From an uncultured Gammaproteobacteria bacterium (GTDB lineage: Bacteria > Patescibacteriota > Patescibacteriia > Magasanikbacterales > GCA-002688135): a DNA stretch of 64,000 bases. Where the stretch lies: assembly GCA_964536205.1 (NCBI GenBank), contig CAZHVT010000004.1, positions 17,960 through 81,959 on the forward strand, in the 5' to 3' direction. The notes under the pieces were generated by a model. It searched no databases and was not told where the DNA came from. It saw nothing but the letters and a program-made list of their open reading frames with translations. A program made the translations under genes and the position numbers. Below are positions 6,563-61,579 of the stretch, piece by piece. Each line of letters begins with the position of its first letter. Position 1 is the first letter of the stretch.

Positions 6563-6745
6563 GATATCGCTACACGATATTTCATCACCCGACAGGGTGA
6601 TCTAATAATTAACAATAAGATGGGCGCCGGATCTCAGCAGATACAGTCTTCTGAGATCCGGAACTCATCCGGAAACTGATCCAAGATAAAGGTATAAGAT
6701 CCAACAGAACCTTCTTAATAAAATAATTGTTTGTAGATACAAATT

Positions 6746-6828
6746 CGTTTTGGCTGCAAAGCGCTCAAAGCTCCTCGACGATACTTCGGTATCGCCTCAT
6801 CGCTTATTCACGCTTTTCGCCGAAAACG
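6746..6828 (+). ncRNA. candidate structured RNA element, copy A, in the rpsJ-rplC spacer
   Basis: About 85-nt hairpin. Outer stem CGTTTTGGCTGCAAAGCG / CGCTTTTCGCCGAAAACG encloses the core CTCAAAGCTCCTCGACGATAC-TTCG-GTATCGCCTCATCGCTTATTCACG. Homologous to 14161-14249. Confidence 0.4.
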
Positions 6829-6987
6829 ATATTCATATCTACTAAACACTATTTTATCAAAAAGATTCATGGAAAACATACCCACATCACGGAATCAGAG
6901 GAGTATAAAGAAGATACATGCGGATTCCCGAATGGAATTCGTACACAATTCGACATATTAAGGCATGCATAGCATGTCATGTTGAGT

Positions 6988-7843: not shown

Positions 7844-7881
7844 AATCATAGAACGTAGAACATAGAACGTACAACATTAAT

Positions 7882-9870: not shown

Positions 9871-9883
9871 ACAAAGCGATTAG

Positions 9884-9941
9884 CGTCTAGCGTTTAGCGT
9901 TTAGAAAATTTCTAATCGCTAAACGCTGTACGCTATACGCT
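9884..9941. repeat. word-built imperfect palindrome, family 1 (AGCGTTTAGCG words), copy a
   Basis: AGCGATTAGCGTCTAGCGTTTAGCGTTTAGAAA / TTTCTAATCGCTAAACGCTGTACGCTATACGCT. Lies between rplB and rpsS. Confidence 0.7.
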
Positions 9942-9949
9942 CAAATATT

Positions 9950-10705: not shown

Positions 10706-10735
10706 TTCTTGATTCATAATTCATAATTCCTACAC

Positions 10736-12656: not shown

Positions 12657-12657
12657 A

Positions 12658-12727
12658 AGCGATTAGCGATTAGCGTCTAGCGTTTAGAAAAAATTCTAAT
12701 CGCTAGACGCTGTACGCTAAACGCTAC
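12658..12727. repeat. word-built imperfect palindrome, family 1, copy b
   Basis: AGCGATTAGCGATTAGCGTCTAGCGTTTAGAAAAAATTCTAATCGCTAGACGCTGTACGCTAAACGCT, nearly identical to copy a. Lies between rplN and rplX. Confidence 0.7.
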
Positions 12728-12733
12728 AAAATT

Positions 12734-14120: not shown

Positions 14121-14160
14121 GGAGGATCATTCAAAATAAGTACTGATTGAATATATGACA

Positions 14161-14249
14161 TCCACTTCTGCTAAAAAGGGTTCAAAGCTCGTCAACGATG
14201 CGTCCGGCATCGCTTCCTCGCTTGTTCACCCTTTTTATCTAGAAGTGGA
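14161..14249 (+). ncRNA. candidate structured RNA element, copy B, in the rpsH-rplF spacer
   Basis: Outer stem TCCACTTCTGCTAAAAAGGG / CCCTTTTTATCTAGAAGTGGA enclosing the core TTCAAAGCTCGTCAACGATGC-GTCCG-GCATCGCTTCCTCGCTTGTTCAC. About 80% identical to the copy A core. Confidence 0.4.
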
Positions 14250-14288
14250 GGCCATCTATCCTAATCAGTATTATTCCGAATAATCCAT

Positions 14289-14834: not shown

Positions 14835-14837
14835 CAT

Positions 14838-16190: not shown

Positions 16191-16306
16191 AAGATGCGTA
16201 AATCGTAAATCGTAAAGCGTAATGAGGGAAAAGGTATCGCTGCACGCGATCTATTAATATGTCGCCCTTGGCGACTCCGCTACCCGCATTACGAGTTACT
16301 AATAGT

Positions 16307-20961: not shown

Positions 20962-20970
20962 GATGCGTCT

Positions 20971-23494: not shown

Positions 23495-23543
23495 ACGTGA
23501 TTTTGAATTTCGAGTATACTAAGACAGTAATTTAAGGAATTTT

Positions 23544-33219: not shown

Positions 33220-33990
33220 ATGTCACGAATCATTTCTGTCGTCAATCAGAAGGGGGGCGTTGGTAAGACAACAACATCCATTAATGTGGGTGCGTTTTTG
33301 GCAAACATGGGGAAATCTGTGTTATTGGTGGATTTGGATCCGCAGGCTAATGCAAGCGCAGGGCTTGGTATCAATCACAAAGAATTGGAGTTGGGTATTT
33401 ATCATTGTTTGATTGGTGAGGCTCGGATGCCGGAAATTATCAGAAATACATCTATCCAGGGATATCGCGTGGCACCATCTACACCAGATTTGGCAGGAGC
33501 TTCGGTAGAATTAGTAAATGCAGATCGTCGAGAATATCGTCTGGCCGATGCAATTGATGAGGTGAAACATGGATATGATTATATTATTATCGATTGTCCG
33601 CCGTCACTTGGATTGCTTACCATCAACGGCTTGATTGCGTCAGATGAGGTTTTAATTCCAGTACAAGCAGAATATTATGCGTTGGAAGGGTTGGGGCAAC
33701 TCATGAATACCATCAAACTTGTTAAAGAACACATCAAGCCAGAATTAAAGATTTTAGGCACAGCCCTCACTATGTTTGATAAACGAAATAAATTATCCAC
33801 AGAGGTGATGCATGAATTATATAAATTTTTCCCAGACAAAATTTTCAGATCGGTTATTCCAAGAACTGTCCGTCTCGCCGAAGCTCCAAGTTTCGGACAA
33901 TCAATTTTGGAATACGACCCGCGGTCAAAAGCGTCAAACGCATATCAACGCCTAGCAAAAGAAATCGTAGAAACCCAAAGGTGGGAATAA
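33220..33990 (+). CDS. parA: chromosome partitioning ATPase ParA/Soj
   Basis: Deviant Walker A KGGVGKTT. 256 aa. Confidence 0.9.
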   Translation: MSRIISVVNQKGGVGKTTTSINVGAFLANMGKSVLLVDLDPQANASAGLGINHKELELGIYHCLIGEARMPEIIRNTSIQGYRVAPSTPDLAGASVELVNADRREYRLADAIDEVKHGYDYIIIDCPPSLGLLTINGLIASDEVLIPVQAEYYALEGLGQLMNTIKLVKEHIKPELKILGTALTMFDKRNKLSTEVMHELYKFFPDKIFRSVIPRTVRLAEAPSFGQSILEYDPRSKASNAYQRLAKEIVETQRWE

Positions 33991-34139
33991 CCGCAAAGCG
34001 GAATGACCAAAAAACAAATAACAATGTTCAAACAAATCTCAAGCTCCAAAAAACGATATGTGTAATTTGAACATTAGAATTTGAATATTGTTTATTATTT
34101 GGAATTTGGTACTTGTAATTTATTGACAACGTCAATTAT

Positions 34140-35009
34140 ATGGCATTAGGAAAAGGATTGAACGCACTTATTGGATCAAAGACATCCGGAAGCAAAAAGG
34201 CTTCAAAAAAACCGACGACCAAGGTTGAAGAAAAACAGTCGGTACAAGAGGGGAGTCTTATGATTCCTGTCTCGCAGATTCATGCAAACCCAGATCAGCC
34301 GCGTAAACAGTTCGGCATAGATGAATTACAAGATTTAGTACAATCAATTGAAAAGCATGGAATTTTGCAACCGCTTGTTGTGAAAGAGGAAGAGGATGGG
34401 ATGTATCAAATTATCGCAGGAGAGAGACGTTTTCGTGCATCACAGATGATCGGTATGACACGAGTGCCATGTACAGTAAAACCGGTTGATAAAAAACAGG
34501 AGCTAGAAATTTCTCTCGTTGAGAACATTCAGAGAAAAAATTTGAATCCACTTGAAGAAGCTTTTGCATATCAACGATTAACAGACGAATTTGGAATGAC
34601 GCAGGCAGAGGTTGGATCGCAGGTTGGTAAAAGTAGATCGTATGTTGCAAATACAATTCGATTGTTAGATTTGCCACAGGATGTTCAAAAAGGATTGAGT
34701 GAAGGAAAAATTTCACATACAAAGGCGCGCGCATTGTTAGGCTTGCCAACTATCAGACAACAACTAAAAGCGTTCTACGATATTGCAGGGGATAAGCAAA
34801 TTTCAACACGCGCAACAGAACAGATGGTACGAAAGCATCGAACAAAACTGGGGCGACGAGATCCATTACTAAACGCACTTGAAGAACGTCTCCGTGAAAA
34901 ATTGGGCACGAAAGTGTATGTGACAAATACAAAAGGAAAGGGAAGTGTGAAGATTGATTTCTTTTCAGATGAGGAGATGAATGGGGTTGTGCAGAAGATT
35001 TTGGGGTAG
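34140..35009 (+). CDS. parB: chromosome partitioning protein ParB/Spo0J
   Basis: ParB box GILQPLVV...IIAGERRFRAS, HTH, C-terminal dimerisation region. Confidence 0.9.
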   Translation: MALGKGLNALIGSKTSGSKKASKKPTTKVEEKQSVQEGSLMIPVSQIHANPDQPRKQFGIDELQDLVQSIEKHGILQPLVVKEEEDGMYQIIAGERRFRASQMIGMTRVPCTVKPVDKKQELEISLVENIQRKNLNPLEEAFAYQRLTDEFGMTQAEVGSQVGKSRSYVANTIRLLDLPQDVQKGLSEGKISHTKARALLGLPTIRQQLKAFYDIAGDKQISTRATEQMVRKHRTKLGRRDPLLNALEERLREKLGTKVYVTNTKGKGSVKIDFFSDEEMNGVVQKILG

Positions 35010-38798: not shown

Positions 38799-40997
38799 TC
38801 ATGATTCTTGTTCCTTTTCTGCAGGAGCTTCGGGTTTCTTAACTCGCGCTAATTGTGTGGCAATCTGCTTCTCATCTTCCTCTGTCTTTTTTCTAGAAAA
38901 ATCACATTCCTTATAATTCGAACACTTCACCTTTGTTTTCCCAGACGCCATCAAAACAGATTTACATGCTTCACAAAATTGATTCTCAAGAGGCATCCCC
39001 CACAGCGCATAATCACATGTTGGATATGTTGAACATCCATAGAATATCTTACCACGCCGAGTCTTTCTCTCAACCAATGGAGCTTTGCATGTAAAACACG
39101 GAACACCAATTTCCTTTGGCACAGCTTTTTCTTTCTTATCTTTTTCAAGCGGCTCTGTATGCTTGCAATCTGGATATCCTGAACACGCATAAAATTTCCC
39201 ATAACGCCCCACACGAATAATCACATCCTTTCCACACTCACTACATTTCTTATCCGTTTTCTCCATCACAATATCTTCTTTTTTCACTTCTTCAGTCTTC
39301 TTCTCAAGATTATCTTTAAATGGTTTATAAAAATCTTTGATGATCGGTTTCCATTTTTTCTCACCATCCGCAATATCATCAAACTGTTCCTCCATATGAG
39401 CCGTAAAATCGTAATCCACAATTTTGGGAAAATGCGCCACAAGCACATCATTCACCACCTCACCAATATCAGTAGGGGAGAATCGACGTCGATCCAAACG
39501 CTCAACATAACCACGCGCTTCAATCGTCGCAATAGTCGGTGCATATGTTGAAGGACGCCCAATGCCATGTTCCTCCAAAATCTTCACCAAACTTGCATCA
39601 TTAAATCGTGGAGGAGGTTCAGTGAAATGTTGTTCTGGAATGATGGATTGTACGGTCAATTCCTCTCCTTCTTTTAATTCAGGAAGCGTACGATCTTTCA
39701 ATTGCTCGGGATACACCGCCAAAAATCCATCAAACACAATCACACTTCCTGTTGTTTTGTAGGTATATGTTTTTTTATCAGAACCATCAATGTTCATCAA
39801 AATGGTTGTTAATCGAGATTGTGCAGGATTCATTTGAGATGCCAACGCTCGACGCCAAATCAAATCATACAATTTCCATTGTTGGTCATTCAAAGAATCT
39901 TTCAACTTGTCTGGAGTTAGCTCAACATGTGTTGGACGAATCGCCTCATGCGCCTCCTGCGCAGATTTTGACTTCGTCTTATATTGATGAGGTTTCTCTG
40001 GAATATATTTGTCAGAAAACGTATGTTTTGCATAATCTCGCGCTGCTGCCAAATACTCTTCTGATAAATTCACAGAATCCGTACGCATATACGTAATCAA
40101 ACCAGTCGTTCCTTCTTCACCGGGAGTTTCAATACCTTCATACAATTGTTGCGCTAAACGCATGATATTTTTCGCCGACCATCCAAATTTTGAATGAGCT
40201 GCTTGTTGCAGAGTAGAAGTGGTAAAAGGCGCATTTGGATTTCGCTTTTTATCCTTCTGTTCAATGCTTTTGATTTTTGCTTTCTTGTCCTTGCATGCAT
40301 CCACAATCGCATGCGCATCCTTTTCATTTCCTATACTCAACTTCTCCAATTTCTCATCATCAATTTTAAATAATGCACCTTCAAGCGGATGATCTTTTGC
40401 ATTATCAGAAAGAAACATCCCATCAATACTCCAATATTCGTCTGGTTTAAATTTACGAATTTCACGCTCGCGCTCAACAATCAAACGAACGGCAACAGAT
40501 TGCACACGACCTGCAGACAATCCCCGCGTAACTTTCTTCCACAGAAAAGGGGATAACTCATATCCAACCAATCGATCCAAAACACGTCGCGCTTGCTGCG
40601 CATCAACACGAGCCAAGTCAATTTTACGAGGATTTTCCAAAGCTTTTAAAATGGCTTTTTTGGTAATTTCATGAAACGCAATACGCTTAACTTTCGCAGG
40701 ATCTAATTTCAAAATGTGAGCTAAGTGCCAAGAAATAGCCTCTCCCTCGCGATCTTCATCAGTAGCAAACAAAATCTCATCCGACTCTTTCGCTAACTTC
40801 CGCAATTTCGCAACCTGCTTTTTCTTATCAGGCATCACGTCATACTCCGGCTCAAAATCACCTTCAGTATCAATCCCCATAGTTTTTTTAGGGAGATCAC
40901 GAAGATGGCCATACGAAGATTCAACAACGTATTCTTTGGGTAAAAATTTCGTGATAGTTTTGGCTTTGGTTGGGGACTCTACGATGACAAGTTTCAT
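38799..40997 (-). CDS. topA: DNA topoisomerase I with C-terminal zinc-ribbon repeats
   Basis: TOPRIM N-terminus, active-site Tyr region, repeated C-x2-C...C-x2-C fingers. 732 aa. Confidence 0.95.
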   Translation of the reverse strand: MKLVIVESPTKAKTITKFLPKEYVVESSYGHLRDLPKKTMGIDTEGDFEPEYDVMPDKKKQVAKLRKLAKESDEILFATDEDREGEAISWHLAHILKLDPAKVKRIAFHEITKKAILKALENPRKIDLARVDAQQARRVLDRLVGYELSPFLWKKVTRGLSAGRVQSVAVRLIVEREREIRKFKPDEYWSIDGMFLSDNAKDHPLEGALFKIDDEKLEKLSIGNEKDAHAIVDACKDKKAKIKSIEQKDKKRNPNAPFTTSTLQQAAHSKFGWSAKNIMRLAQQLYEGIETPGEEGTTGLITYMRTDSVNLSEEYLAAARDYAKHTFSDKYIPEKPHQYKTKSKSAQEAHEAIRPTHVELTPDKLKDSLNDQQWKLYDLIWRRALASQMNPAQSRLTTILMNIDGSDKKTYTYKTTGSVIVFDGFLAVYPEQLKDRTLPELKEGEELTVQSIIPEQHFTEPPPRFNDASLVKILEEHGIGRPSTYAPTIATIEARGYVERLDRRRFSPTDIGEVVNDVLVAHFPKIVDYDFTAHMEEQFDDIADGEKKWKPIIKDFYKPFKDNLEKKTEEVKKEDIVMEKTDKKCSECGKDVIIRVGRYGKFYACSGYPDCKHTEPLEKDKKEKAVPKEIGVPCFTCKAPLVERKTRRGKIFYGCSTYPTCDYALWGMPLENQFCEACKSVLMASGKTKVKCSNYKECDFSRKKTEEDEKQIATQLARVKKPEAPAEKEQES

Positions 40998-41003
40998 AAT
41001 TTT

Positions 41004-41090
41004 TCGTAACGAGTAAAGCGTAATGCGTAAAGAGGGATTTCGCCTTCGGCGATCGCTTTACGCTTTGCGCATTACGCTTTACGAACTACC
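41004..41090. repeat. word-built palindrome, family 2 (CGTAAAGCG words around GGGATTTCGCCTTCGGCGATCGC), copy a
   Basis: Right arm overlaps the last 5 codons of the rimK-like gene. Near-reverse-complement of copy b at 44250-44313. Confidence 0.65.
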
Positions 41091-41947
41091 TGAGCAAGAA
41101 AATCCATGATTTCAGCAGCAACATCGATACCAGTAGCCATCTCAAAATGCTGGAAACCTGGATTGCGATTTACTTCCAAGATCTTCATAACTCCTTCATG
41201 CTCGCGCATATCAACCCCAGCAACAGGAATGTGTAACACAGCCGCAGCAGAAACAGCAATATCTCGCATGTTATCTGTCATGTCAAATGATTCGAATTGT
41301 GAACCTAAGTCTGTATTCGATCGAAACTCTCCATCAACAGGAATTTTTTTCACAGCTCCAAGCGCAACACCATCAACAACAAACACACGAAAATCATGCG
41401 GAGCGTCAAGGTATTCTTGCACAATAAAAGTTCCTACAGGGCCAGAAGCCACAGCACGCCGTACATCATTCATTGTATCACAGCGACGAATGTCAGTCCC
41501 ATGCGATCCGTGAATCGGTTTGATGATGACCGGAAATGTAAATGAGGCTTCCACAGCATCTATGGAAGGTTCATGTGTGAGAAAAGATGTGTGAGGAATA
41601 GGGAGTTGCGCGGATTTCAACTTCATCATTTGATGAAGCTTATTCCACACAAATGGCACATCAATCAAAGCAGGATTTGCAACCGTAATATGTTTGCGCT
41701 CCAAAGCTTGCGCAAGAGAAAGATACGCAGAAATAAACTGCGGATGCATATCACGAAAAAAAGCTACATCAAATGAATCGTGTGAAATCTCATTTCCATC
41801 AACAATTATGTGTTCACCAAGCTCGTCCACAGAAAGAGAAATCGATTCCATATGAACAACGCGAGCTTCATGATCGCGCGCGTTGGCTTCCTCAATGATT
41901 CTTAGATTTCCAGGGCTTTCTGGATTGCCCAATATAAGTAGTTTCAT
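41072..41947 (-). CDS. RimK-like ATP-grasp ligase
   Basis: 291 aa, ATP-grasp fold (FPVIIKPIHGSHGTDIRRC..., EYLDAPHDFRVFVV). Confidence 0.7.
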   Translation of the reverse strand: MKLLILGNPESPGNLRIIEEANARDHEARVVHMESISLSVDELGEHIIVDGNEISHDSFDVAFFRDMHPQFISAYLSLAQALERKHITVANPALIDVPFVWNKLHQMMKLKSAQLPIPHTSFLTHEPSIDAVEASFTFPVIIKPIHGSHGTDIRRCDTMNDVRRAVASGPVGTFIVQEYLDAPHDFRVFVVDGVALGAVKKIPVDGEFRSNTDLGSQFESFDMTDNMRDIAVSAAAVLHIPVAGVDMREHEGVMKILEVNRNPGFQHFEMATGIDVAAEIMDFLAQVVRKA

Positions 41948-43212: not shown

Positions 43213-43482
43213 ATGGAAGTCATTTCGATCACTTCACCCCCGATCGATCGTAACAAACAAATTCAATTCTGTCTGAAGTGCAGCATCATCATTCACGAGC
43301 CGATTGATGAATTCAGCGTGTGTAACCACAATTCCAGTATTACCCTGGAGTTGACCGGTTTCGATCACGGAACTGGTGTCGAATGCATGGAGCGCGACTG
43401 CGCTTTCAATGGGATTGGACGATCGCCAAGCGAGCTGTCCAGAATGTTGATTGGACACGCCGAGCGTCACAAAAAGAGTTGA
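43213..43482 (+). CDS. hypothetical Cys-rich small protein
   Basis: RBS AAAGGAGG 5 nt before ATG 43213. Followed by terminator 43488-43517. Slightly GC-richer than flanks. Confidence 0.35.
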   Translation: MEVISITSPPIDRNKQIQFCLKCSIIIHEPIDEFSVCNHNSSITLELTGFDHGTGVECMERDCAFNGIGRSPSELSRMLIGHAERHKKS

Positions 43483-43487
43483 ACGCA

Positions 43488-43517
43488 GCCCTGAACCTAT
43501 GTGGTTCGGGGCTTTTT
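43488..43517 (+). terminator. terminator of the same hairpin family as the island modules
   Basis: GCCCTGAACC-tatgt-GGTTCGGGGC-TTTTT. Compare CCCGAACC-aacgc-GGTTCGGGG at 30992. Confidence 0.55.
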
Positions 43518-43542
43518 AATTCTCTTTAACAAGCCCAAAACC

Positions 43543-43585
43543 TATTATACTACAAGCCCAAGGGGCTTGTAGTATAATAGGATCT
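43543..43585. repeat. perfect 19-bp palindrome CCTATTATACTACAAGCCC / GGGCTTGTAGTATAATAGG. A third (direct) copy at 43705-43725 overlaps the pth stop
   Basis: The two arms are separated by 3 nt. The copy at 43705 (CCTATTATACAACAAGCCC) is inverted relative to the right arm and lies about 120 nt away, a MITE-like geometry. Confidence 0.55.
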
Positions 43586-43709
43586 TTGCCAAAATTTCCA
43601 TATTGAAGCTCAATTCTACAAAAAGTTTTTTGCCTTAGCTACTGCTAGGGCTGCAAAACTTATTTGAAGAATTGATCATTCAATCTGAAAATTTGTGACT
43701 GAAAACCTA

Positions 43710-44240
43710 TTATACAACAAGCCCCTCAACATAATCTTCCACACCGGAAAAAGTTGAAATAAGTTTTTTGTAATCGTCTGGAGAAAAATTCTTTAAAACA
43801 AGATCAATAGAAGATGTATCATCGCCATCCGGACGCACACCAAGCCTAATCCGCTCAAAATCCTGACTACCAACATGCGAAATAATAGATGCAATCCCTT
43901 TGTGCCCTGCAGACCCTCGGTTAGACTGAATTTTCATGCCACCAACCGCAAGATCAGTATCATCATGAATAACAATCAAATCTGTTGGATCCATTTTGTA
44001 CCATTTCAAAAGCGCGAAAACACATTGACCGGACTCATTCATAAAAGAATTCGGCTTTGCGAACAAAAACTTTGTGCCCTCAAATGTACAATCAGCAACA
44101 AAACAATTTGTCTTTTTCATTAAGCTCCATGCTTCACACTCAAAATGTTCTGCTAAATAATCCACAGCCAAGTATCCAGCATTGTGTCGGGTGAGTTTGT
44201 ATTCATCGCCTGGATTACCAAGGCCTATTACAATTTTCAT
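43710..44240 (-). CDS. pth: peptidyl-tRNA hydrolase
   Basis: Internal Met gives MKIVIGLGNPGDEY...H..G. The longer track ORF adds a non-conserved N-terminus. Confidence 0.9.
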   Translation of the reverse strand: MKIVIGLGNPGDEYKLTRHNAGYLAVDYLAEHFECEAWSLMKKTNCFVADCTFEGTKFLFAKPNSFMNESGQCVFALLKWYKMDPTDLIVIHDDTDLAVGGMKIQSNRGSAGHKGIASIISHVGSQDFERIRLGVRPDGDDTSSIDLVLKNFSPDDYKKLISTFSGVEDYVEGLVV

Positions 44241-52560: not shown

Positions 52561-52989
52561 TTAAAATGATGTCGGAGGAGTTGGGGGTGCTGCTGGTGGA
52601 TCTGGAAATTCAGATGCTGGCGGCGGCATGTGTGCAGCTGGCGGCGGAGTTGGGGGTGGTGTTGGTGCAGAAGGTGCAGATGTTGCTCCTGGTGCGCTCC
52701 CAGCTAAAGCTCCTTCTTTCACAGATTTTTTCAATCGTGATCCTGCTTTAAATTTTGGTACAGGAACAGCAGGGATATCAATCGCTTTTGATGGATCTTG
52801 TGGATTAACTCCAACGCGACCCTTGCGCACGCGAGCGCTAAATTCACCAAAACCTGCCAAGGTGACGCTGCCGCCTCCTGCAATAGTTTCAGTAATAATA
52901 TCTGTCATTGCTTCAACCGCAGCTTCAGCCTGCGATTTATTTAAGCCGAGTCGATCGGCCACAGCTTGCGCCAAATCGGATTTGTTCAT
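52561..52989 (-). CDS. hup: HU-family DNA-binding protein with about 50-aa P/A-rich C-terminal extension
   Basis: MNKSDLAQAVADRLGLNKSQAEAAVEAM...GFGEFSARVRKGRVGVNPQ is the HU fold. Tail APGATSAPSAPTPPPTPPPAAHMPPPASEFPDPPAAPPTPPTSF. Confidence 0.85.
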   Translation of the reverse strand: MNKSDLAQAVADRLGLNKSQAEAAVEAMTDIITETIAGGGSVTLAGFGEFSARVRKGRVGVNPQDPSKAIDIPAVPVPKFKAGSRLKKSVKEGALAGSAPGATSAPSAPTPPPTPPPAAHMPPPASEFPDPPAAPPTPPTSF

Positions 52990-53062
52990 AGATGGGAATT
53001 ATGAATTATGAATAATGAATCATGGGGTTCTCATTTAAAGAAATCATCCATAATTCCTTATT
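52990..53062. repeat. word-built imperfect palindrome (ATTATGAAT words) between hup and ymdB
   Basis: GGGAATTATGAATTATGAATAATGAATCATGG...CATCCATAATTCCTTATTCGTGATTCATATTTC. Confidence 0.55.
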
Positions 53063-53068
53063 CGTGAT

Positions 53069-53860
53069 TCATATTTCGGTCACTATATTGAACGGTTCAA
53101 TATGAGAACAATGACCTGTTTTTTCATCGACATCAACAACGATTCCCGAAAGTATCGCTTCTCCAGATTCCGCAAAGTCATGTGAACGTGTGTGATCTGG
53201 ATGAAGAAAATTATTGAGAATCGTATCTTGTTTCACTCCTAAAACGCCATTACGATCACCACACATACCAATATCGGTTATGTAGCCAGTTCCTTGAGGG
53301 AGGATTCTCGCATCATTTGTTTGTACGTGTGTATGCGTTCCCCAAGCCGCGGAAACACGTCCATCCAAATGCCAACCCATCGCAATCCGCTCGCTCGTTG
53401 TTTCTCCATGAAAATCGAGCAGCGCGATTGAGATGTCTTTGTGTTCTGGCATGTTCAAGATTGTATCGATCACAGCAAACGGAGAATCAACCGTTTCCTT
53501 CATAAACATCTCACCCTGTAAGTTTAGCACAATAATAGTTGTACCAGCAACATCGAATGTGCGAAACCCCACACCAGGCGTTCCACCCGGATAATTCGCC
53601 GGACGAATCACATCAGCATCATCCAACAGAGGAATACCAGGAGGTTTTGAGAATGTATGATTACCACCAGTAAAACAATCGATATTCAGAGCGCGCATTT
53701 CATCTAAGGTACGCTGTGTAATCCCTTTTCCATGCGCTAAATTCTCAGCCTGAACAATCGTAAAGTCAGGCTTAAGATCAGCCTGCAATCCCGGCAGCTC
53801 TTTAGTGAGCGCCTTTCTTCCAAGTTTTCCTACAACATCGCCGAAGATTAAAAATCTCAT
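53069..53860 (-). CDS. ymdB: YmdB-like metallophosphoesterase (2',3'-cyclic-nucleotide phosphodiesterase family)
   Basis: Internal Met gives MRFLIFGDVVGKLGR...QAENLAHGKG...GNH. The longer track ORF N-terminus is not conserved. Confidence 0.85.
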   Translation of the reverse strand: MRFLIFGDVVGKLGRKALTKELPGLQADLKPDFTIVQAENLAHGKGITQRTLDEMRALNIDCFTGGNHTFSKPPGIPLLDDADVIRPANYPGGTPGVGFRTFDVAGTTIIVLNLQGEMFMKETVDSPFAVIDTILNMPEHKDISIALLDFHGETTSERIAMGWHLDGRVSAAWGTHTHVQTNDARILPQGTGYITDIGMCGDRNGVLGVKQDTILNNFLHPDHTRSHDFAESGEAILSGIVVDVDEKTGHCSHIEPFNIVTEI

Positions 53861-58060: not shown

Positions 58061-60061
58061 ATGAACGTCACAGAACTCGCACGACGCCTCCGCGTCAACT
58101 CAAAAACACTCCTACAAACTCTCCCAGAGTTTGGTTTTGATATTGGAGCGCGCGCGATCAAAGTAGATGACAAAATCGCACAACAAATTCAAAGAGCATG
58201 GCCAAAAATTAAACGTGAGCTAGACAGACGAAAAGCAGAAGAAGAAAAAGAACGACGCCTGAAAGATATTGCAGCGCGCCGCGAAGAAGTGGGAACAGTG
58301 GAATTATCAGATGTGTTTACGGTTCGCGAATTTGCAGCAGCACTTAATTTACCTGTGACGACGTTAATGCAAGAATTGATGAAGAATGGAATTTTGGTAG
58401 CGATGAATGAACGAATCGATTTCGACACCGCACAAATCATCGCAGAAGATTTAGGATACGAAGTGATCAAAAAAAATGAAGGAGAAGCTGTCGTTGAAAC
58501 AACATCAGAAGAATCTGAACTAAAAGAAATGCTTGATGCAGATGCAAAAAACGCCACACCACGTCCAGCTGTTATTGTGGTGATGGGACATGTTGATCAT
58601 GGAAAAACGCGATTGCTCGATGCGATTCGCTCAACTAATGTGATCGATACAGAAGCCGGCGGAATCACACAGCATATCGGGGCATATCAAATAGAAAAAC
58701 AAGGAAAGAAAGTGACGTTTATCGATACGCCAGGGCACGAAGCCTTTACTGTCATGCGATCTCGTGGTGCGCGCGTCGCAGACATCGCTATTTTAGTAGT
58801 AGCCGCAGACGACGGAGTCAAGCCACAAACAAAAGAAGCAATCAAAATTATTCATGCCGCAAAACTGCCATACGTCGTCGCACTCAACAAAATGGATAAA
58901 GCAGAAGCAAATCCCGATAAGGTTAAAAAGGAACTATCAGAACATAACGTATTGGTAGAAGAATGGGGAGGCGACGTGCCAATTGTAGAAATCTCTGCAA
59001 AAGAAGGAACGAATATTGATAAAATTTTGGATGTGATTTTGTTAGTCGCGGATGTAAACGCGGATAAAATCACGGCAAATGCAGATCGTGGCGCTATCGG
59101 AACGGTAATTGAATCTCGTGTTGATAAAGGACAGGGTCCGGTTGCGACAGTTCTCGTACAAGCAGGAACATTGAAGAAAAAAGATCCGCTTAATGTAAAC
59201 GGCCGAAATTATGGTCGCGTGCGAGCTTTGAAGAATTATGTAGGAGAGGATTTAAAAGAAGCACTTCCAGGAACACCTGTCAGAATTTTAGGATTTCAAA
59301 GCGCTCCGGAAGTGGGAGACATTTTAGATGTTGATGCTAAAGACGCGGTGAAGCTGAAGAAAACGAAAACATTAAAATCACAAGCAGTTGCATCAGTACT
59401 TACACAAACAACAGAGGACGAAGACGAAGAAGGAAAGGGAAAGAAGATTCTACCAATTGTTGTGAAGGCTGACACACTGGGATCACTTGAAGCTGTCCTT
59501 AACTCACTTGAGAAAATTCAACATGACGAAGTCGGAATTAAAATCGCTTCACAAGGTTTGGGAAATATCACGGATGCAGAAATTCTCAAAGCCGAAGGAA
59601 CAAACACAAGATTTTATGCATTTAATGTGGTGCCAACAGGAACAGCTGCGCATGTCGCTCGTGAAAAGAAATTACCGATTTATGAAACAGCAATCATTTA
59701 CGATTTACTATCAAACGTAACAGCGGAACTTGAAAAATTACTTGAACCAGAAATTATTGAAACACAACACGGAAACGCAACGGTGCTAGAAATTTTCCGA
59801 CAAGATAAAAAAGGACAAATTATTGGGTGTCGTTTGAACGAAGGAAAATTCCGACCGGAAATTAGTATTCGCATTAAACGTGCAGGTGAATTGATGGGAG
59901 AAGGAAAAATCACCATGCTCAAATCTGGAAAATCAGAAACAAAAGAAGTTCCGGGAGGTTCAGAATTTGGAATGAATTTGAAATCGCGTACAACCGTACT
60001 TGTCGATGATGTTTTAGAAGGGTATACTGTTGAGCGAAAGGAGAAAAAACTTAATCTATAG
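58061..60061 (+). CDS. infB: translation initiation factor IF-2
   Basis: G domain ([26 protein letters not shown]) plus C-terminal beta-barrels. 666 aa. Confidence 0.95.
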
Positions 60062-60147
60062 CGATTAGCGTCTAGCGTTTAGCGATTAGTAATTCACTAG
60101 CGAGCTCAGCGAGAAACTAAAAGCTAAACGCTAAAAGCTAAACGCTA
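60061..60147. repeat. word-built palindrome, family 1, copy c
   Basis: GCGATTAGCGTCTAGCGTTTAGCGATTAG...AGCGAGAAACTAAAAGCTAAACGCTAAAAGCTAAACGCT. Confidence 0.65.
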
Positions 60148-60151
60148 CTCT

Positions 60152-60463
60152 ATGTTAGAACTCACAGACGACAATTTCAAAAAAGAGGCACTAGAAAGCG
60201 ACGTGCCAGTACTGGTAGATTTCTGGGCACCATGGTGTGGCCCATGCCAAAGAATGTTGCCAGTTATGGATGAGCTCGCAAAAGAGATGGAAGGTAAGCC
60301 AGTAAAAGTAGCCAAAATGAATGTAGATGAAAATCAAACAACGCCAGCAGAATACGGCATCCTCTCAATTCCAACCTTGATAGTATTCAAAGATGGAAAA
60401 GCCGCAGAAACACTCCAGGGCGCACAATCAATAGAACAACTCAAGACAGCGCTTGGGGTTTAG
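60152..60463 (+). CDS. trxA: thioredoxin
   Basis: WCGPC active site. 103 aa. Confidence 0.9.
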   Translation: MLELTDDNFKKEALESDVPVLVDFWAPWCGPCQRMLPVMDELAKEMEGKPVKVAKMNVDENQTTPAEYGILSIPTLIVFKDGKAAETLQGAQSIEQLKTALGV

Positions 60464-60582
60464 AAATCGAGAAATCGAAAAAACGAGAAAACCAGAAATC
60501 GAAAAATCGAAAAATCGAAAAAAATCCCGCAAGGGATTTTTAGCTTTCTCGTTTTCTCGTTTTCTCGATTTCTGGTTTCCTC
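60464..60582. repeat. very long word-built imperfect palindrome (AATCGAAA / TTTCTCG words) with GCAA tetraloop centre; convergent-gene terminator
   Basis: Arms of about 55 nt around AAATCCC-gcaa-GGGATTT, between trxA (+) and the antiporter gene (-). Confidence 0.65.
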
Positions 60583-60586
60583 GAAA

Positions 60587-61579
60587 TCATCCTCGCATCG
60601 AAACAAAAATGATATAGGCAAGATACAATACAAGAAGTTGTAATCCCTTTGTGGTGCCAAGCTTGAATCTTTTGCCATAAAACATCGCAACAAAAATCAA
60701 GATGCTAGCAAAAATCGCAAGGGCAAGGTCAGTTTGCAGGGTATGAGAAAATGCAAGTGGGGTGATAGTAGCTGTTGTTCCCAAAACAAAAAATACATTA
60801 AACAAATTCGATCCGATAACATTACCAACAGCCACATCAACCTTTCCTTTCTTGGCAGCAACAATCGACGTGACCAATTCAGGGAGCGATGTTCCGAGTG
60901 CTACGATGGTTACAGCGATAAACGCTTCTGAAAATCCGAGTTGTCCGGCGAGAAGGGTAGCGCTATCCACAGATAATTTTCCACCAATAATCAAACCGGC
61001 CAAACCTATCAATATCCACATGATTGAAGAGCCTAGTGGTTTTTTTACAACATGATCCGCACCATCTTCAGAAGTACCCAATCCAAATGTGTAATATAAA
61101 AAGATAATAAAAAAGCCGAGTAGTGCAATACCTTCAGATCGTCGAATCACACCTTCAGTGCCTCCGTCGATAAGCATATCATTGGCAAACACGCCCAACA
61201 AAATCATGGACAACAGCATGAAGGGGAGCTCTTTCCAAACCGTTCCATGTCGAATAGAGAGCGGCTTTGTTGCCACAATCGCTGTAACACCCAAAATCAA
61301 CAAAATATTTGAAAGGTTACTACCAATAACATTACCAATCGCAATATCTGCAGTTCCAGATAGCGCAGCAACCACACTCACTAACAACTCCGGTGCAGAC
61401 GTACCAAACGAAACAATCGTCAGTCCAATCACAAAATCAGACATTCCCCAGCGCGCAGCAAGAGAAGATGCACCATCAATAAGCCACTCCGCACCTTTAA
61501 TGAGTGCACCAAAACCGATAACAATCAGCAAAAGATAATACAATGAAAGCATAGAAAAAAAGTATAGCAGAAAATCCAA
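60587..61579 (-). CDS. Ca2+/cation antiporter (CaCA family, YrbG-like)
   Basis: Two alpha-repeat regions (GNVIGSNLSNILLILG and GNVIGSNLFNVFFVLG). About 10 TM. Confidence 0.85.
   Translation of the reverse strand: MDFLLYFFSMLSLYYLLLIVIGFGALIKGAEWLIDGASSLAARWGMSDFVIGLTIVSFGTSAPELLVSVVAALSGTADIAIGNVIGSNLSNILLILGVTAIVATKPLSIRHGTVWKELPFMLLSMILLGVFANDMLIDGGTEGVIRRSEGIALLGFFIIFLYYTFGLGTSEDGADHVVKKPLGSSIMWILIGLAGLIIGGKLSVDSATLLAGQLGFSEAFIAVTIVALGTSLPELVTSIVAAKKGKVDVAVGNVIGSNLFNVFFVLGTTATITPLAFSHTLQTDLALAIFASILIFVAMFYGKRFKLGTTKGLQLLVLYLAYIIFVSMRG

Follow-up and report, generated by a model that had tools for sequence, protein, structure and literature searches.

We analysed a 64-kb stretch of DNA (64,000 nt of contig CAZHVT010000004.1; hereafter the window) from an uncultured bacterium of marine origin. 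Judged by its L6 homologues it belongs to the Parcubacteria group within the Candidate Phyla Radiation (CPR, Patescibacteria). An rpsE/rplO junction without rpmD, the gene for L30 (15760–15765), together with a short rpsN of the zinc type (61 amino acids), is consistent with this assignment. The window carries fusA, tuf, rpsJ, the S10/spc ribosomal protein genes, secY and adk in this order, all on the + strand. Two spacers of this ribosomal superoperon, rpsJ/rplC and rpsH/rplF, hold copies (A and B) of a structured element that the original prediction had described as a duplicated functional RNA of about 85 nt. Our analysis indicates that A and B are probably copies of a new family of non-coding, hairpin-forming miniature mobile repeats of ~165 bp. 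The family resembles miniature inverted-repeat transposable elements (MITEs), REPINs and ERIC elements and would propagate via a single-stranded hairpin.

Both copies lie where the prediction had placed them. Two half-core patterns matched exactly twice each in the window (chance expectation 0.04 and 0.01), and A and B share 83% identity over aligned regions of 120 nt. The window sequence recurs in independent JGI and ENA assemblies, the only difference being one single-nucleotide polymorphism, in copy B. As reported originally, the outer stems differ in sequence between the copies and still pair in each of them. The length of ~85 nt, however, has to be corrected: pairing runs beyond the reported bounds and the full element is about twice as long. 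The features of the two copies are:

6706–6869, minus strand: copy A, full element (~164 nt), a single end-to-end imperfect hairpin in the long rpsJ/rplC spacer
6746–6828, minus strand: segment of copy A described originally, the inner half of the hairpin
6765–6811, minus strand: conserved apical module of copy A, with an AAGC/GCTT helix, tandem G·A motifs and the apical helix 6777–6796
6808–6809/6765–6766, 6800–6801/6772–6773 and 6797–6798/6775–6776, minus strand: G·A positions of copy A
6706–6716: left terminus of copy A, AGAACCTTCTT, a terminal inverted repeat (from the alignment of 11 copies)
6859–6869: right terminus of copy A, AAAAAGATTCA, a degenerate partner of the left one
14123–14287, minus strand: copy B, full element (~165 nt)
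14161–14249, minus strand: segment of copy B described originally
14182–14229, minus strand: conserved apical module of copy B, including the apical helix 14194–14214
14226–14227/14182–14183, 14218–14219/14189–14190 and 14215–14216/14192–14193, minus strand: G·A positions of copy B

In copy A the inverted-repeat arms comprise 6707–6744/6831–6868 and 6745–6763/6811–6829. The consensus pairs map to 6707–6868, and a covariance model built from five copies matched copy A with 96.6 bits. The same model found copy B, which occupies the rpsH/rplF spacer, starting 3 nt past the rpsH stop codon and ending 2 nt before the ATG of rplF. Folding of the + strand gave z = -7.8 for A and z = -8.6 for B. Scans for promoters and terminators around the two copies returned nothing above the shuffle expectation.

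For comparison we used the syntenic operons of four lineages with L6 proteins 95%, 88%, 82% and 75% identical to that of the window (loci L003, L006, L009 and L012). The 95% relative is the metagenome-assembled genome 'Parcubacteria group bacterium ARS125' (GCA_002688135.1, locus L003). Nine copies from ARS125 and the two in the window give a set of 11. In this set the unit length is 164–170 nt, which equals the whole insertion, and three types of region can be distinguished: conserved inverted termini, stems that are free in sequence and keep their pairing, and an apical module of ~50 nt that is conserved in sequence. The termini, (T)AGAACnnATCT and AGATnnGTTCT(A), are recognisable in nine of the 11 copies and degenerate in copy B and in the ARS125 copy L3b. 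At the loci examined this motif is confined to element ends. The prediction had argued against a selfish repeat with conserved termini; the conservation of the inverted termini AGAAC.../...GTTCT overturns that argument. It had also set conserved terminal inverted repeats (TIRs) and co-varying stems against each other as descriptions of the outer arms, and each describes a part of them: the termini are conserved, and the stem portions that link them to the core covary. A protein-coding core was considered and rejected, because a 1-nt indel in the loop shifts the frame between copies and the ATG-initiated open reading frames (ORFs) on the structured strand differ in frame.

We aligned the 11 copies, in the orientation of the better-folding strand, with MAFFT in a structure-blind manner and derived a consensus structure with RNAalifold. 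It contains 67 pairs; 91.9% of the cells are paired, and in 51 of the 67 pairs both partners have changed. Not one of 500 column shuffles reached any of five covariation measures, and pairing fell to 41–46% when the partner was slid by 1–3 columns. The covariation seen originally in the inner hairpin (GATAC/GTATC versus GATGC/GCATC) is therefore real and extends to the homologs collected since. These data support a hairpin that is under selection, with pairing preserved by compensatory change. Of the functional RNA that had been deduced from the covariation, this selected hairpin stands; a ribosomal-protein-binding or operon-specific function does not, as the orthologous spacers are empty in four lineages. 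In the simplest reading selection on the hairpin acts on the propagation of the element rather than on a role at the place where it has inserted.

The rpsH/rplF spacer, which holds copy B in the window, measures only 9, 9, 6 and 3 nt in the 95%, 88%, 82% and 75% relatives, respectively. The rpsJ/rplC spacers of L003 and L009 align with the window on both flanks of copy A and lack the element. Conversely, three sites that are occupied in ARS125 are empty in the window:

14835–14837: empty site, the 3-nt rplF/rplR spacer (TAA CAT ATG); ARS125 has a 167-nt copy here
20962–20970: empty site, the 9-nt recO/aspS spacer; ARS125 copy at L003:16709–16881
23495–23543: empty site, the 49-nt spacer between genes for proteins of 385 and 479 amino acids; ARS125 copy at L003:19326–19538

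Thus, each of the five comparable sites is filled in only one of the two genomes. Three other lineages share with the window an empty rplF/rplR site. Since three further outgroups are empty at two of the sites, the insertions there are gains.

The covariance model detected the two copies in the window and none more, even with filters off, and at least nine copies on seven contigs of ARS125; scores across both genomes range from 65 to 104 bits. The genes next to the ARS125 copies include trmD, khpA, yidC, bacA and dnaX as well as genes for an NYN-domain protein, a DsbA-like protein, a formyltransferase and a methyltransferase. Beside the copy upstream of khpA lies a region of ~1.1 kb without any ORF of at least 70 amino acids (L043 4643–5760), which could hold an RNA gene or a degraded gene. 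A scan of 185,579 species-representative genomes with a degenerate two-part pattern of the core gave at least 44 matches. Seven of them pass the covariance model, all in ARS125, with two more copies nearby, and the 37 other matches listed, from other phyla, all fail it. A metagenome scan gave at least 15 matches; the four real ones among those listed are Tara contigs with the same ARS125 copies. A scan of a viral collection yielded one match, which is at chance level. The family is dispersed in the genome, is not bound to ribosomal genes and is so far limited to a small marine clade.

These observations bear directly on the type of explanation put forward by the prediction, namely a cis-acting RNA of the ribosomal protein mRNA that would be specific to the S10/spc superoperon; we considered an autoregulatory binding site for a ribosomal protein, a processing site and also a stabiliser. 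In the window both copies are located in superoperon spacers in gene orientation, the + strand hairpins are significant as well, their pairing covaries, and the stem base of copy B holds a GGAGG just past the rpsH stop codon. Known regulators of this operon, the S10 leader bound by L4 and the S8 site of spc, are likewise structured RNAs within S10/spc. These leaders, however, are syntenic, conserved mimics of rRNA on the sense strand, whereas the element is absent at orthologous sites, occurs in many copies elsewhere and is structured on the antisense strand. The empty sites in the 95%, 88%, 82% and 75% relatives largely refute the regulatory reading. In ARS125 one copy lies in another superoperon spacer and eight lie outside the superoperon, at unrelated housekeeping loci. 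The selected strand is antisense to the operon mRNA. The comparison with Rfam proposed originally was negative too. At the gathering threshold (Rfam 15) the window contains tRNAs only and no ribosomal protein leader family, and permissive scans of both spacers (E ≤ 10) returned only chance-level matches of the long hairpin to microRNA precursors. None of three marks of such leaders (orthologous position, sense-strand structure and a match to a curated model) was found, and further points from the strand analysis below add to this. We consider a superoperon-specific mRNA element very unlikely.

A candidate for a genuine ribosomal protein leader is found next to the repeat rather than in it. A conserved leader of ~230 nt upstream of rplC is common to three lineages (window 6563–6705 and 6870–6985; L003 1904–2230; L009 716–950). 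It comprises covarying hairpins (GATATCG.../CATTTCGC...; ATCACCC/ATCCCGGC; CCGGATCTCAGCAGA.../GGTACGAGG...; GCGGATTCC/ATGGATAT/GCGAAAATC) and the invariant single-stranded blocks GGTATAAGATC, GAAAACATAC and GTTGAGTGGTATC. Copy A sits between the blocks GGTATAAGATC and GAAAACATAC, and in the ARS125 leader the third hairpin has an additional palindrome, rich in GC, in its loop.

The two strands of the element are not equivalent. We refer to the structure-bearing, better-folding strand as S; for both A and B it is the minus strand of the window and thus the complement of the strand that the prediction had folded. Within the bounds reported originally, the minus strand folds with -35.9 kcal/mol compared to -24.9 kcal/mol for the + strand (A), and with -44.7 compared to -38.6 kcal/mol (B). 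For the full elements the corresponding values are -75.8 and -46.6 kcal/mol (A) and -84.3 and -60.9 kcal/mol (B). With RNA parameters S is the more stable strand in all 11 copies (-70 to -84 versus -38 to -63 kcal/mol), the minimum free energy (MFE) of the sense strand being weaker by 17–43 kcal/mol. With DNA parameters the mean values are -35.5 kcal/mol for S and -25.9 kcal/mol for its complement. Both parameter sets thus give the asymmetry, and folding does not tell RNA from single-stranded DNA as the selected form.

The asymmetry is seen most clearly in the wobble pairs. In a fixed register the rod has 593 Watson-Crick cells, 80 G·U cells on S and only four A·C cells on S, the latter being equivalent to G·U on the opposite strand (binomial p = 2e-19). 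Many of the G·U pairs occupy identical columns in copies of both genomes and are thus intrinsic to, or inherited in, the element and not a product of decay after insertion. Mutation bias was rejected as the cause of the asymmetry: flanking genes have a GC skew of 0.01 at their 4-fold sites, compared to +0.27 (G over C) for the S strand of the elements, and copies share G·U positions.

The conserved 'internal loops' of the core are stacked tandem G·A pairs on S. A 5'-CGAG-3'/5'-CGAG-3' motif is nearly invariant (nine of 11 copies in the 5' arm, 11 of 11 in the 3' arm), a UGAA/UGAR motif occurs in nine of 11 copies, and a third motif, AGAU/AGAU, is present in most ARS125 copies. On the strand read originally the same positions are pyrimidine-pyrimidine mismatches, for which there is no obvious reason to be conserved. 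Both features, A·C on the sense strand where the antisense strand has G·U (80 versus 4) and pyrimidine mismatches in place of G·A pairs, also speak against an element of the ribosomal protein mRNA.

In nine of 10 unambiguous copies S is antisense to the flanking genes; one further copy lies between convergent genes. The sole copy in sense orientation (L044) is found directly downstream of a terminator and a TTGACA-17-TATACT promoter. This arrangement would make S the 5' leader of the gene that follows, with transcription starting at the first base of S.

A family of genes for a rod-like RNA of ~165 nt, made from the S strand as an antisense transcript or a 5' leader, functioning at the RNA level (for example as a scaffold to which proteins bind through the G·A motifs, or as an RNase III substrate) and spread by duplication, would account for a structure of this kind. 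A G·U-tolerant, G·A-rich fold is typical of functional RNA, and the L044 promoter is placed so as to start at the first base of S. Against this, selection on pairing reaches the termini themselves, which requires that the entire element be single-stranded at the same time. The other copies have no conserved promoter outside, S is antisense to tightly packed operons in nine of 10 cases, and every comparable site is polymorphic for presence and absence, which argues against a needed function at any locus. Folding with DNA parameters is equally asymmetric, so RNA is not required. An S-strand RNA gene family is therefore an unlikely explanation, although it fares better than the operon-specific regulator.

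Imperfect palindromes of similar size, in which structure is conserved over sequence and which fold strand-specifically antisense to ORFs, are also known from integrons. We therefore considered relic or solo attC-like sites, or other hairpin sites of tyrosine recombinases, that are recombined as the folded bottom strand. Like attC sites, the element would be a strand-specific folded substrate, and its termini contain ...AAC and GTT.... The R-box consensus of attC is RYYYAAC/GTTRRRY, and the apex is the most variable part of an attC site. In the element the termini read CTAGAAC/GTTCTAT, with purines and pyrimidines swapped relative to the R-box so that only AAC/GTT fit, and the apex is the most conserved part. 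R''/R' boxes and cassettes with IntI were not found: there is no cassette ORF, the copies are single insertions between essential genes, and no integrase was present among the ORFs scanned. We regard an origin from attC-like sites as extremely unlikely.

The spacers of this organism contain a second class of hairpins (~65–130 nt), which are intergenic and built from tandem heptamers (9871–9949, 12657–12733, 60055–60155, 60460–60590, 40990–41095 and 52985–53090). Examples of the heptamers include TTAGCGT/CTAGCGT, which surround an apical TAGAAAATTTCTAA; other hairpins use GAAATCG, GCGTAAA or TGAATTA. In ARS125 heptamer hairpins of the type TAGTGAG/CTCACTA are found in at least 11 S10/spc spacers (L003 3670–9598). 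At the rplB/rpsS and rplN/rplX sites both genomes have heptamer hairpins, but the heptamers differ; this points to concerted evolution or to regeneration on repeated occasions. With a TAG every 7 nt these hairpins provide a stop codon in all three frames. Unpaired heptamer runs are present in ribosomal protein spacers at 7844–7881, 10706–10735 and 16191–16258 (TAGAACG, TAGAACA, TAGAACG, TACAACA; repeats of TTCATAA; three times CGTAAAT). The first unpaired heptamer is identical to the TAGAACN at the ends of the 165-nt element. Over the window as a whole, TAGAAC shows no enrichment (20 observed versus 24 expected).

The abundance of such hairpins from spacer-specific heptamer repeats indicates that a process that generates or maintains palindromes operates in this genome. 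One could thus imagine that the element copies are non-mobile, independent palindromes that arose by template switching during replication or by hairpin-templated repair in AT-rich spacers. However, 11 copies at unrelated loci share a non-palindromic core of ~50 nt, their termini and their length, and an independent origin is accordingly most improbable. In the reading that we favour, the window copies are insertions and not operon-specific regulators.

We compared the proposed mobile repeats with known systems. REPINs are doublets of REP sequences that form hairpins and are mobilised by RAYT (TnpA-REP) transposases of the HUH type. The RAYT (Y1) gene is present in single copy and usually has REPINs on its flanks. 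They consist of conserved parts and a spacer that keeps its hairpin potential via compensatory changes (PMC3116915). Their populations form long-persisting lineages, and the single-stranded hairpin is thought to be the substrate of transposition (PMC3116915). The element is similar in being a non-coding, extragenic hairpin of ~100–170 nt with many diverged copies whose positions differ between close relatives, and in that the less conserved part of the hairpin keeps its pairing via compensatory change. It differs in the location of the conserved blocks, which are at both ends in REPINs (the REPs), whereas here the apex is conserved most strongly together with 5–6 nt at the termini. The ends read AGAAC and lack a consistent GTAG/CGTC tag; GTAG occurs ~30 nt inside the S strand in only five of 11 copies. 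Furthermore, no RAYT was found among the ORFs scanned, and the host belongs to the CPR and not to the proteobacteria.

The definition of MITEs rests on TIRs, short duplications at the target and long hairpins; co-transcription is common among them (PMC3184786). Families such as ERIC/IRU (127 bp), YPAL/RU-2 (168 bp), Correia/NEMIS and Nezha share with the element the size, the TIRs, the imperfect palindrome over the whole length, the location at transcribed intergenic or in-operon sites and the presence/absence differences between relatives; ERIC also has a conserved central region. The likeness lies in these traits; we claim no similarity in sequence, and Rfam gave no match to the element. As expected of a MITE, the element is small (less than ~400 bp), non-coding, bounded by conserved TIRs and present in dispersed copies with insertion polymorphism between relatives. 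Side effects on neighbouring genes at the RNA level are documented for hairpin MITE families (PMC3184786). A difference is the clear TA target duplication of the known families, which compares to a possible duplication of 2 nt at most here. To our knowledge, a G·U strand asymmetry of ~20:1 and invariant tandem G·A motifs have not been described for hairpin MITE families. None of the papers in the collection searched makes a relevant link between MITEs and CPR bacteria.

Based on these results we propose the following scheme for the propagation of the element. The S-strand hairpin, as single-stranded DNA or RNA, would be the substrate for mobilisation by a trans-acting enzyme, and the tandem G·A module is a probable recognition site for this enzyme. 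Lineages that lose the S hairpin would cease to spread, which would account for the covariation. Insertion takes place in short spacers between the genes of housekeeping operons, among them stop/start junctions of 3–9 nt in the ribosomal superoperon. Operon copies with S in sense orientation would disturb the mRNA with a hairpin of -75 to -85 kcal/mol and would therefore be counter-selected. Copies with S in antisense orientation would survive, because the mRNA then bears only the weaker complementary hairpin. This weaker hairpin may be tolerated between coupled genes since it would leave the upstream stop and the downstream start codon close to each other.

The copies present a paradox of age. 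Their pairwise identity is 44–75%, and the best match of copy A (68%) is an ARS125 copy at a non-syntenic site, while 4-fold sites of orthologous genes differ by only 23–46% between the two genomes. The copies are thus more diverged than 4-fold sites, although the insertions post-date the split of the genomes. In the simplest reading several old sub-lineages of the element would persist and seed new insertions now and then, which is also the picture drawn for REPIN populations (PMC3116915).

Several points weigh against a mobile repeat. No transposase, RAYT or other mobiliser was detected among 20 ORFs of the window (28–57 kb) and 14 flanking genes in ARS125; a Pfam search of these ORFs returned housekeeping genes only and no Y1_Tnp domain. 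Searching for an autonomous partner via the TIR motif led only to element ends. In three comparisons of filled and empty sites the target-site duplication is at most 1–2 nt: rplF/rplR is compatible with a duplication of C or CA, the 385/479-amino-acid spacer possibly with GT, and recO/aspS with none, or with TG plus a 1-nt indel. Three ARS125 copies are flanked by TA/TA or CA/CA, which is not distinguishable from an extension of the TIR. The known copies number 11 and come from two genomes, with no further lineage among the scan matches listed. There is no near-identical pair of copies, so recent transposition is deduced from presence and absence and not from young copies. Finally, selection that disfavours stable hairpins on the sense mRNA, instead of a function of S, could account for part of the strand asymmetry; other hairpins of this genome are, as a tendency, also slightly more stable on the antisense strand.

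It is possible, though doubtful, that the element represents a new kind of single-strand-structured mobile element in the CPR. Its rod of ~165 nt with the apical G·A module would be recognised, as single-stranded DNA or RNA, by a non-DDE enzyme, such as a divergent HUH/RAYT-like nuclease or another system, and inserted precisely at stop/start junctions of essential operons, nearly without duplication. The hairpin would keep stop and start adjacent, so that translational coupling would survive the insertion, and the heptamer-built hairpins of other spacers could be products of the same machinery.

Other features of the window concern the host replicon and further spacers. The regions 33220–35009 and 28–33 kb hold parA/parB and a switch in gene orientation, and three tRNA genes lie at 31.6–33.0 kb. 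A replication origin may be located nearby, which would be of importance for linking the orientation of the elements to that of replication. The direction of replication could not be deduced because the GC skew at 4-fold sites is close to zero. Past the left edge of the window 3.8 kb of sequence were gained. A spacer of 230 nt (43480–43712) contains three strong hairpins with a total MFE of about -91 kcal/mol and has no Rfam match; one hairpin is a perfect stem of 19 bp (CCTATTATACTACAAGCCC...GGGCTTGTAGTATAATAGG) and another is ~100 nt long.

The family has not been described before and, in our reading, belongs to the miniature mobile repeats that form hairpins, an established type of element. 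CPR bacteria have small, streamlined genomes. As a rule, essential operons are 'repeat deserts' (PMC3184786). In the present genomes, the most conserved operon of bacteria has been invaded repeatedly, at coupled junctions of 3–9 nt, by at least two families of hairpin repeats. This invasion in a streamlined CPR genome, the G·U asymmetry and the invariant tandem G·A motifs should be of specialist interest. The family is a clean case of strong covariation without a locus-specific functional RNA and calls for caution in the covariation-based discovery of non-coding RNAs. Both the G·U asymmetry of ~20:1 and the invariance of the G·A motifs suggest that one particular strand forms a single-stranded intermediate. 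As the insertions differ completely between the sister species, they provide a natural experiment on the tolerance of long hairpins between coupled ribosomal genes.

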